Part shown: one piece after another, positions 33,497 through 35,604 of the stretch
How the letters are laid out: each line of letters begins with the position of its first letter
How positions within the stretch are numbered: position 1 is the first letter of the stretch
DNA from: Amoebidium appalachense
Lineage: Eukaryota > Protista > Ichthyosporea
Assembly: GCA_963693365.1 (NCBI GenBank)
Contig: CAVNZM010000004.1
Span: 13,191,088-13,255,087 of the forward strand
Length of the DNA: 64,000 bases
Direction: 5' to 3'
The notes under the pieces: model-generated
The model's input: only the letters and a program-made list of their open reading frames with translations
Database searches by the model: none
Told to the model about the DNA's origin: nothing
Translations under genes and position numbers: made by a program

Positions 33497-35604
33497 CTAC
33501 AGGTGCAGCACCTTCCTGTAGGGCTGCATGTCCACCCCGGCAGCCTTGAGCAGATCACGTGCCAGTGCATTGAGGTGCATGCTGCGCACCATGGTGCTGT
33601 GCTCGTACATCTCCAGCAGACAGAACAGTGCCTCGGCTGGCTGCAGGCCATTATCGCAGTCCCGCAGCTGCTCGGCCACGTCCTGCTGCCGCTCCAGAGG
33701 ATACACCCCACTGTCCCAGCGGCCCTCGGCCAGCCCCACAACAATCACCGGCACAGGCATGCCCTCGGCCGTGGTGGCTGCAAACGTGAGCTGCCTCTCG
33801 TCGTACTCGACCATCAGAAACCGCAGTGGCTTGCTGGGAGGGGCCAGGTGCGTGGCGTAGCGGCCCACCTGCACCTCAAAGCCCGAGCGCACCCTGGCCT
33901 CTCTGGTGCAGATGTCCTTGCCCCGCTTGAGCTCGGCAGCCCCAAAAACGTCCACCCCGTCTGGCCGCATGGTCACATCGCCAACCTTGAATATGGCACC
34001 GCTGGCCCCACCATGTCTGCAGAAGTCAGAAGGCAGCACGAGTCAGACTGAGTGACTGGTGGTCGTACTCTGTGTCTTATCCAGGCACCGAGGACATTAT
34101 GTATCACCGCTCACATGGTGCAGCATTCTGAAAACGGTGACAAGACCTATTAGCCTGAAATTAATCACTAACTAAAAATTAAAAATATTGGGACCCGCAA
34201 GCCACCTGGGCATGGCATTTCCTTTTCAGCAAAGCTTCCTAGGTGTAAATAGTTTCTGCATGTTCTTTTCCGCCATTGAAGTGCAATCAGTGCAAGATGT
34301 GTTCAAAGTCTTTGCATGTAACAGTGACGGAACATGCTACATCCCCACTTTTGGGAAAACAAAACCTTAAATGTACTAACCGAGCTCATTCAACACTACT
34401 AGCACATGCATACACTGATGGGCCTGGCAGTATGTTGTAAACGTTCTTATAAATATTAGTCTCATAAGAATCTAATTTGAAAAGTGCTGCAACGCATGAG
34501 AGCGAGAACACCCACCAGCAAGCAAGAAGGACAACAAGTTTTTAAAATTTTATGAAGGGAAAATGACGAGGTAGACCAGAATCTTACCGAAGAAGAAATT
34601 CCCCGATGGTAGCTTCGTGTGGACCCAGTGCGCTCTGTCGTGCGGCACACCGGAGGTGCTCGAAAAATGCGTCTGTTGTGCTGTTGCTGCGCATGTCTGG
34701 GTTTGCACAGCACGTGTTGCCCACTTGCACATGTGCCGAGCACACTGCCATCCCGCAGGAGAAACAGACTCTCGGGTCGAGGGATAGCTTACCACCGCAC
34801 AGACGGCAGCCTGCCGCATGAATCAACTGGACAAGCGCATTGTGTCTCTCCTGCCGCATGCTGGCCTTTGCAAGTCGTTTCAGCGGTTTGCGTGCTTTTG
34901 CCAGCACCTTCACCGTGACGTACTTTCTACCACAGGAGTAGCTACAGGCCTCGGCATGGCAGGCATTGCTGCAGACAGGGCGGCCGGTCGTTGGGCACAC
35001 TCTTGCCGTCACCTTGTTGCACTTGTGGCAGGCAACGTCAGCAGTCAGCAGCTGCACCAGGTCCTGTGGGTGTGGAGTGGGGTCAGCACAAAGGCTGAGT
35101 GGAATGGGCGACCGGCAACCACTGGGCGCGTACCGGTGCCTCCTCCATGGGCATACCAGGGGCCAGACCACGCTACTAGCACAACGAACAGGATGTCCCA
35201 CTGCAGCGACCTCCCGCCAAAGGTCCTGCTGGCAGTGCCCCAGCCACAGGGTCCCCTGCCATATAATACGGCTAGCTCCCAATCGCAGCTCACTTACGCG
35301 CAAAACAAGTGTGCCCGTGGGAACATCAGTGTAGGTCGCACCAAGAGCATGGCTGGGTTGGAGGGCTAAGTTGGGGATGGCAAGGTACGGGTTTCATGGA
35401 GGCTAGTCCCCTACCCACCTTCTGTTCGTTGCGCATGGACGGCGTCATGTTGTGGACAAACTGGCGCAGAAGATGGCCCCGCTGTGCGTCCCATTTGCTG
35501 ACAGTTCTTGGTTTGCGCTGAAGCTTGAGGCGTAAAGGTGATGCTTTGGCTGCGGCTGAGCTGTGCCCCGAAGCTGCCGTTGAAGAAGAAGCTTTGATGA
35601 ACAT
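33497..35604 (-). CDS. Uncharacterised ~426-aa protein: two zinc-finger-like modules plus a C-terminal PD-(D/E)xK nuclease-like domain
   Basis: Phase-consistent exons 35604-35419, 35255-35157, 35063-34588 and 34016-33497; the last intron has a GTAAGA donor and a CTGAC...TGCAG acceptor. Motifs: CHKC-x7-CPTTGRPVCSNACH, CRLC-x10-CFSC-x4-CSAH, and HEATIGEFLLRHG...RPDG...AELK...QVGRY. The exon 1 and 2 boundaries are less certain. Confidence 0.65.

Follow-up and report, generated by a model that had tools for sequence, protein, structure and literature searches.

The gene that we call copy A, located in a 64,000-nucleotide window of the Amoebidium appalachense genome (the window is the whole stretch of DNA analysed here, and all positions refer to it), is a real protein-coding gene of three exons, and its spliced product probably adopts, judging from an ordered sequence motif, the fold of a PD-(D/E)xK nuclease behind two zinc fingers. 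Directly observed are the layout of the exons, the splicing of intron 1, purifying selection in exons 2 as well as 3 and the structure of the local duplication. We tentatively interpret the gene as a lineage-restricted, dispensable defence or conflict nuclease, in which two zinc fingers are combined with a predicted PD-(D/E)xK DNase and of which extra copies arose by local events. Two related copies, B and C, lie in the same window (Table 1).

Table 1. Positions of copy A, its parts, the related copies and the duplicated units in the window.
Feature	Positions	Strand	Remarks
Copy A gene	33497-35604	minus	three exons, two introns
Copy A exon 1	35419-35604	minus	donor used in RNA-like contigs
Intron 1	35064-35418	minus	355 nt, GT-AG, branch A at -20; joint in X1 and X2
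Copy A exon 2	34588-35063	minus	two zinc fingers, basic linker, predicted first nuclease helix (E212)
HIT-like zinc finger, C74-C102	34944-35030	minus	Pfam zf-HIT E=0.021
Basic linker	34830-34928	minus	by composition: 11 K/R and 1 acidic residue in 33 aa
Second Cys/His cluster, C148-C181	34707-34808	minus	pattern test
Intron 2	34017-34587	minus	571 nt, GT-AG, in phase; read-through gives in-frame stop at donor
Copy A exon 3	33497-34016	minus	predicted PD-(D/E)xK core and helical tail
Left duplication unit	27485-40378		PPR-like gene 3' exons, copy A, upstream region, 4-kb insertion
TG...CA insertion	36155-40230		4.1 kb, located 550 bp upstream of copy A; target duplication of 5 bp
Right duplication unit	42314-51400		promoterless PPR-like 3' exons and copy B
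Copy B	48595-50730	minus	all motif residues kept; intron 2 retained in transcript
Copy C	51886-53565	plus	head-to-head with B; transcribed, spliced at intron 1

The 5' part of the gene model was derived from contigs of two runs, X1 and X2, which we take to be RNA, an assignment that fits with the spliced joint and an uncovered spacer. In X1 the intron-1 joint 35419/35063 reached a depth of 824 compared with 38 for the unspliced contig, and the same joint was recovered in X2. The length of 426 aa given in the preliminary description was not reproduced: the sole joint in the RNA-like contigs removes 35418-35064 and leaves 393 aa from the ATG at 35604 or 341 aa from the in-frame ATG at 35448-35446 (M53; residue numbers count from the first ATG at 35604 throughout). 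An extra exon inside intron 1, which would be a route to 426 aa, was not seen in the contigs; within intron 1 the frame of exon 2 stays open over 110 codons, a number that 59 of 2,000 shuffles reach. We regard M53 as the likelier start, with codons 1-52 possibly being 5' UTR, because these codons appear unconstrained (exon 1 of copies A and B differs by one synonymous and four non-synonymous substitutions, and the four all sit in codons 1-52), copy B carries a frameshifting 1-nt insertion there, the cover by RNA-like contigs, which by nature are unable to fix a translation start, stops at 35574, 30 nt inside this segment, and the M53 ATG is present in all three copies. A long N-terminus serving as targeting peptide was set aside, as codons 1-52 are without constraint.

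Intron 2 decides whether the zinc fingers and the predicted nuclease core end up in one protein. The preliminary description had joined two open reading frames in phase by a canonical intron, and both the GT donor at 34587 and the AG acceptor at 34017 were found in the DNA. Its claim that this intron is spliced holds as far as the canonical borders, the phase and an intron-like composition and divergence are concerned, but no spliced contig was seen: among the contigs listed for X1 and X2, in which intron 1 was spliced, none had a joint across intron 2, and X3 was empty. Furthermore, a contig of 1,839 nt with a depth of 413 crosses the whole of intron 2 unspliced, and retention of the intron would yield a product with zinc fingers only, ending at the stop at the donor. 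It is conceivable that intron 2 is not used at all, so that a short zinc-finger protein is the product and exon 3 a separate or dying frame in the 3' UTR. The bridging contig and the missing joint next to a spliced intron 1 speak for this reading, as do copy C, which never shows a third exon, and the presence of an own ATG in exon 3 just ahead of the PD motif. However, the bridging contig represents copy B, whose letters it carries at 39 of the 40 variants shown (40 of 89 listed), and copy B has lost a branch point that is kept in copy A. Branch motifs are located at -27 and -10 in copy A and at -10 alone in copy B, where an insertion of 6 nt deletes the -27 motif, and we assume that intron 2 is retained in copy B because the -27 branch point was lost. 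For comparison, the motif was found in three of the six introns of the carnitine palmitoyltransferase-like (CPT) gene of the window at -16 to -25, and at -20 in intron 1 of copy A. In addition, contigs tend to drop rare transcript forms. A contig specific for copy A was not found among the contigs listed in the runs, and stretches upstream of the genes were without contig cover, neither of which is proof of silence.

A comparison of copies A and B also argues against an unused intron. The GC content of intron 2 is 0.42 versus 0.59 and 0.64 in the flanking exons, and substitutions between the copies amount to 30/571 (5.25%) in intron 2 compared with 10/476 in exon 2 and 13/520 in exon 3 (intron 2 versus exon 3, p=0.02). 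Within the exons, pN is 0.011 and pS 0.053 for exon 2 (p=0.016), and 0.010 and 0.055 for exon 3 (p=0.007); both exons pooled have 13 synonymous and 8 non-synonymous substitutions (p=2.8e-4). Exons 2 and 3 are under purifying selection, and their pS equals the divergence rate of intron 2, i.e., intron 2 evolves at the neutral rate. Intron 2 is in our view very likely real in copy A, with its removal predicted from these features, and disuse of the intron appears quite unlikely.

The assignment to the PD-(D/E)xK enzymes starts from a motif whose order was confirmed as E212, P239-D240, E249-x-K251 and Q270-xxx-Y274, including the short PD-to-E spacing of 8 residues, counted between D240 and E249; Q270-Y274 sits 18 residues past K251. 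E212 is encoded in exon 2 and the other residues in exon 3 (D240 at 33961, E249 at 33934, K251 at 33928, Q270 at 33871 and Y274 at 33859), and the full set requires splicing of intron 2. Given a spliced intron 2, the sequence contains an acidic motif I, (P)D and (D/E)xK in the order of the PD-(D/E)xK enzymes, and the QxxxY that follows motif III, from whose Y274 a helix is predicted in both low-confidence models described below, corresponds to the RecB family. The minimal pattern PD-x(7-30)-[DE]xK alone is frequent and occurred in 1,507 of 20,000 shuffles of the protein. The extended pattern PD-x(7-30)-[DE]xK-x(8-30)-QxxxY, picked post hoc after the sequence was seen, turned up in 31 of 20,000 shuffles; among 236 bacterial ORFs, a null set that flanks nuclease genes and may itself contain nucleases, 2 had it. 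A relaxed pattern matched this protein, 33 of 73 true PD-(D/E)xK domains as against 7 of the 236 other bacterial ORFs (a ratio of about 15), and 23 of 20,000 shuffles. Five patterns were tested in total, and a strict one with hydrophobic context was dropped, matching neither this protein nor any of the family members (0/73).

The restriction-endonuclease-like domain proposed in the preliminary description is backed by this motif, which is rarer than expected by chance, but not by profiles or models. Home-built profiles of seven bacterial families gave no significant match to the spliced domain: for those built from 19, 25, 7, 22, 25, 16 and 2 sequences, 168, 326, 254, 478, 759, 79 and 1,409 of 2,000 shuffles, respectively, scored as high. 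The families, listed here without regard to that order, were NucS, YhcG, PDDEXK_3, Mrr_cat, UPF0102, PDDEXK_1 and PDDEXK_7, the last being the one with 2 sequences. Four of the profiles were each applied to the members of the three other families in this comparison and detected 16/54, 14/48, 51/66 and 25/51 of them; the 51/66 belongs to the NucS-like profile. Because the profiles detect one another's families, their failure weighs moderately against the fold. With hhalign, three of the seven best local alignments were in register on the motif (NucS-like, YhcG and PDDEXK_1) and not significant, their scores being reached by 7 to 34 of 40 shuffles. Comparison of exon 3 with Pfam, PHROG, NCBIfam and PADLOC gave no match, filtered Pfam scans returned none to Tox-REase-5, -7 or -9, and no members of these three were found in 3, 400, 300 and 251 sampled genomes. 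AlphaFold models of exon 3, calculated from the single sequence and lacking the first helix, had pLDDT values of 36.7 and 44.5. At this low confidence both have a helix at exon-3 residues 53-57 starting at Y274, which counts for the fold, and a strand at residues 75-82 where the fold needs a crossover helix, which counts against it; a three-stranded meander follows the QxxxY helix. Fold searches with these low-confidence models gave no match.

The strongest objection to a nuclease is that the gene could be an orphan with two zinc fingers and some other alpha/beta domain, the motif being an after-the-fact coincidence. No profile, homolog or structure backs the PD-(D/E)xK fold, the models contain the meander beyond the QxxxY helix, and the full pattern in 2 of 236 other bacterial ORFs means that chance encounters have to be expected when many windows are scanned. 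On the other hand, five motif elements are ordered in a fitting context, the intron joins the first helix and the core in phase, three of seven hhalign alignments fall on the motif and the ORFs of the null set adjoin nuclease genes. We consider such an orphan somewhat unlikely and prefer the nuclease.

The zinc fingers of exon 2 were only partly as described before. The first Cys motif resembles zf-HIT (PF04438; E value in Table 1), but with 15 bits it scores weakly and stays under the Pfam gathering cut-off of 24.7. The AN1 finger follows the pattern C-x2-C-x(9-12)-C-x(1-2)-C-x4-C-x2-H-x5-H-x-C. The second cluster has the first six of these ligands, but the last pair differs, so the full pattern is absent, and there was no Pfam match to zf-AN1; Pfam returned just DZR (E=0.096) and Zn_ribbon_3 (E=0.35). 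Between both clusters, the basic linker could possibly act as a nuclear localisation signal or as a DNA-binding helix.

The idea of a lineage-specific family is supported by searches that were empty in all collections used. Exon 3 had no homolog among 1.84 billion representative proteins, two matches being repeat proteins, and none was found among proteins of at least 302 aa for exon 3 and at least 278 aa for exon 2, the lengths to which that search extended. The same was true for viral, metagenome and prokaryote genome contigs, for plasmids and phages (best E=2; one match examined runs antisense to another gene) and for PDB sequences, and an exact-match search of five ORFs returned nothing. 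The coverage of this lineage in the protein collections must be thin, because the window's own protein was not returned either. Copy B keeps all motif residues, but the two copies are 97-98% identical. In the mostly open-access literature searched, by main text, for endonucleases of Amoebidium and ichthyosporea and for restriction endonucleases (REases) with Crinkler, zinc-finger or treble-clef domains (including PMC3417536), neither the protein nor its domain pairing is described, and no report of HIT- or AN1-like fingers fused to an REase was found. Eukaryotic REases in conflict roles are already known; an architecture of HIT-like finger, AN1-like finger and REase would be new.

Among the known systems, RecB, type I HsdR, NucS, YhcG and PDDEXK_3 have the same order of motif I (helix E), motif II (PD), motif III (ExK) and QxxxY, and the accessible text on the RecB family places QxxxY just after motif III (PMC2475608). 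In contrast to the RecB family, copy A has no significant profile match to the seven sampled families, a very short D-to-E spacing (8 residues) and no helicase partner; its predicted nuclease is joined to zinc fingers of eukaryotic type and interrupted by an intron. The Tox-REase clades 1, 6, 7 and 9 are likewise small stand-alone REases with E, D, ExK and Q(Y), and the compact RPDG-like loop of copy A presumably resembles that of clades 7 and 9. According to the available sections of PMC3482391, the signature E, D, ExK, Q, Y belongs to Tox-REase-6 and E, D, ExK, Q to Tox-REase-1, and some Tox-REase clades include eukaryotic members. Copy A differs from them in lacking a secretion module, a repeat region, an immunity gene and a Pfam match to those models. 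What defines polymorphic toxins, a secretion or trafficking module and an adjacent immunity gene, was not found: the N-terminus consists of zinc fingers, and the neighbours are a PPR-like gene and copy C.

The suggestion of a Crinkler-like effector, secreted and aimed at a host or competitor, did not hold up. Crinkler C-termini often bear REase domains, also in free-living eukaryotes, and share with copy A the C-terminal position of the REase and a quick turnover, as far as the accessible parts of PMC5289972 go (for Crinkler background see also the available text of PMC12957317). However, copy A has neither the LxLFLAK nor the HVLV (HVLVxxP) motif and no hydrophobic signal, with a 19-residue hydropathy of at most 0.37 and 0.61 from the two starts. 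Its N-terminus is a zinc-finger pair instead of a ubiquitin-like header, exon 1 is without Pfam match, and an NTPase or kinase module is missing. An effector of this kind is extremely unlikely.

Regarding the copies, the preliminary description counted three within 20 kb, one intact and two disabled, and took this as rapid turnover. Three related copies are indeed present, and the count of intact and disabled ones is right for the nuclease product, as is turnover on a local scale, but B rides in a tandem duplication and C shares one block of 745 bp without a nuclease exon, which makes two local events and no burst. In copy B, exon 1 carries an insertion of 1 nt, exon 3 lacks 2 nt in its late part and intron 2 has lost the branch point; the transcript of copy B with intron 2 encodes an ORF of 169 aa with zinc fingers only. 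In copy C, the 3' part is diverged and frameshifted and a nuclease exon is absent; the best protein match of this part to copy A is a short stretch round E212 (24 of 500 shuffles as high). By its sequence, copy C is an older, decayed inverted paralog. Both B and C are transcribed, and both yield zinc-finger-only ORFs. The shared block (52198-52939 in C, 49902-50642 in B and 34777-35516 in A) is 93-95% identical with far more diverged flanks, a picture that gene conversion between inverted neighbours would produce. Intron 1 lies within this block and differs by about 2% between A and B compared with 5% in intron 2.

Copy B arose by ordinary tandem segmental duplication, the units being 91-98% identical segment by segment, although two haplotypes set in tandem may be an alternative. 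The duplicated unit starts in a poly-G tract inside the neighbouring PPR-like host gene and carries the last exons of that gene; terminal repeats were not observed at the ends of the unit. This PPR-like gene has multiple exons on the plus strand (about 15700-30770; weak Pfam PPR, E 0.03-0.13), and its last exons are recopied in 42314-45800. The earlier suggestion that the gene might be part of a selfish element finds no support in shared boundaries, as the duplicated unit begins inside a host gene and copy C is an adjacent inverted partial copy; termini shared between copies at unrelated sites, as transposable elements have, were not found for A, B and C. The TG...CA insertion upstream of copy A is absent at copy B, where the empty site is at 51270; it has imperfect short terminal inverted repeats and an internal tandem repeat of 1.17 kb and resembles either a long solo LTR or some non-autonomous element. 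It might conceivably silence copy A, which is conjecture. In the spacer between B and C, a short A-tailed repeat at 51572-51719 is covered very deeply in both X1 and X2, where the summed depth reaches 12,806 and loose ends are numerous; it probably represents the 3' end of an abundant element of the SINE or LINE type.

A different view of the truncating intron is that it acts as a switch. The gene would then be either a selfish poison or a nuclease domesticated from a mobile element, making a toxic nuclease when intron 2 is spliced and otherwise a zinc-finger protein that is harmless or protective. Intron retention in the P element provides an analogy for a splice-switched poison. In copy A, a retained intron 2 leads to a stop exactly at the donor, and both transcribed copies, B and C, give zinc-finger-only ORFs. 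Furthermore, the accessible part of PMC6660238 describes the Podospora Spok drivers, likewise eukaryotic and intracellular with variable copy number, as killing by PD-(D/E)xK plus QxxxY and as needing a Cys cluster (Cys/His) for resistance. In contrast to Spok, copy A has no coiled coil and no kinase domain, which in Spok follows the Cys cluster and for which Pfam gave no match in any exon; its Cys clusters precede the nuclease, sequence similarity was not found and evidence of drive is missing. The retention in copy B, which is also frameshifted in exon 3, is explained by plain decay of the branch point, and chance alone often places a stop at a GTAAG donor. Moreover, the unit starts within the host PPR-like gene without terminal repeats, and neither a transposase nor a reverse transcriptase was noticed in the partial annotation nearby. 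A selfish poison is rather unlikely. A related and similarly speculative model, to which we give little weight, would be a splice switch at one locus, with a zinc-finger-guided DNase as spliced and a zinc-finger-only inhibitor as retained form, the neighbours being fixed as inhibitor, in a poison-antidote arrangement against viral DNA or a driver.

Returning to the tentatively preferred defence or conflict nuclease, splicing of intron 2 in copy A would produce a protein of about 341 aa with the order HIT-like finger, basic linker, second finger, nuclease core and helical tail, the protein ending about 70 residues past the predicted core. E212, D240, E249 and K251 would bind Mg2+ and cut DNA, and the Q270/Y274 helix may steady the substrate as in RecB-family enzymes, while fingers and linker could direct the enzyme into the nucleus and onto its target, whether protein or DNA. 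A secretion signal is absent, as there is no hydrophobic N-terminus from either start. The target would most likely be the DNA of an invading virus or mobile element or, upon infection, that of the cell itself, and surplus copies may decay or revert to a zinc-finger-only transcript if extra nuclease is unneeded or harmful. We favour a defence or conflict role over housekeeping because the gene is an orphan, locally duplicated and quickly decaying. In Amoebidium, which is an ichthyosporean, methylated insertions linked to giant viruses, adintoviruses and Plavaka are abundant and mostly intron-poor, those of giant viruses numbering in the hundreds, according to the accessible text of PMC11244446. 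A fresh viral insertion is ruled out for copy A by its introns, its host neighbours and the lack of a viral match. DNA methylation is the defence that we found described for this lineage. If the fold is confirmed, the gene would represent a new family of eukaryotic nucleases resembling restriction enzymes, and a nuclease arm of antiviral defence would become directly testable in a lineage that is close to animals and heavily loaded with giant-virus insertions; if it fails, what is left is a further orphan gene with zinc fingers, duplicated in tandem in an ordinary way. The truncating retained intron is a simple, testable on/off design.

The remaining part of the window contains further features. 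The CPT-like gene is located at 250-8902 on the minus strand, and EukProt transcriptome proteins match its CPT1 exon at 94-98% identity, while the next named match has a CFRG identifier, which we take to be Creolimax; these matches point to an ichthyosporean as the likely host. EukProt P0003 and P0005 are near-identical to this gene from about residue 245 and 38-59% identical before, a pattern that points either to chimeric transcript assembly or to two paralogs with a homogenised 3' half. Rfam identified two tRNA genes in introns of protein-coding genes (1286-1367, minus; 25479-25560, plus) and nothing else in the window. At about 55400-60550 on the minus strand, a multi-exon gene has GGA-type repeats like those of Chlamydia polymorphic membrane proteins (PF02415, E=1e-5); its N-terminal frame is hydrophobic and then Thr-rich, and the product is probably a surface protein. 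Over the whole window the observed/expected ratio of CpG is 0.54, a depletion in keeping with a methylated genome, and the introns are rich in poly-G/C and CA tracts.
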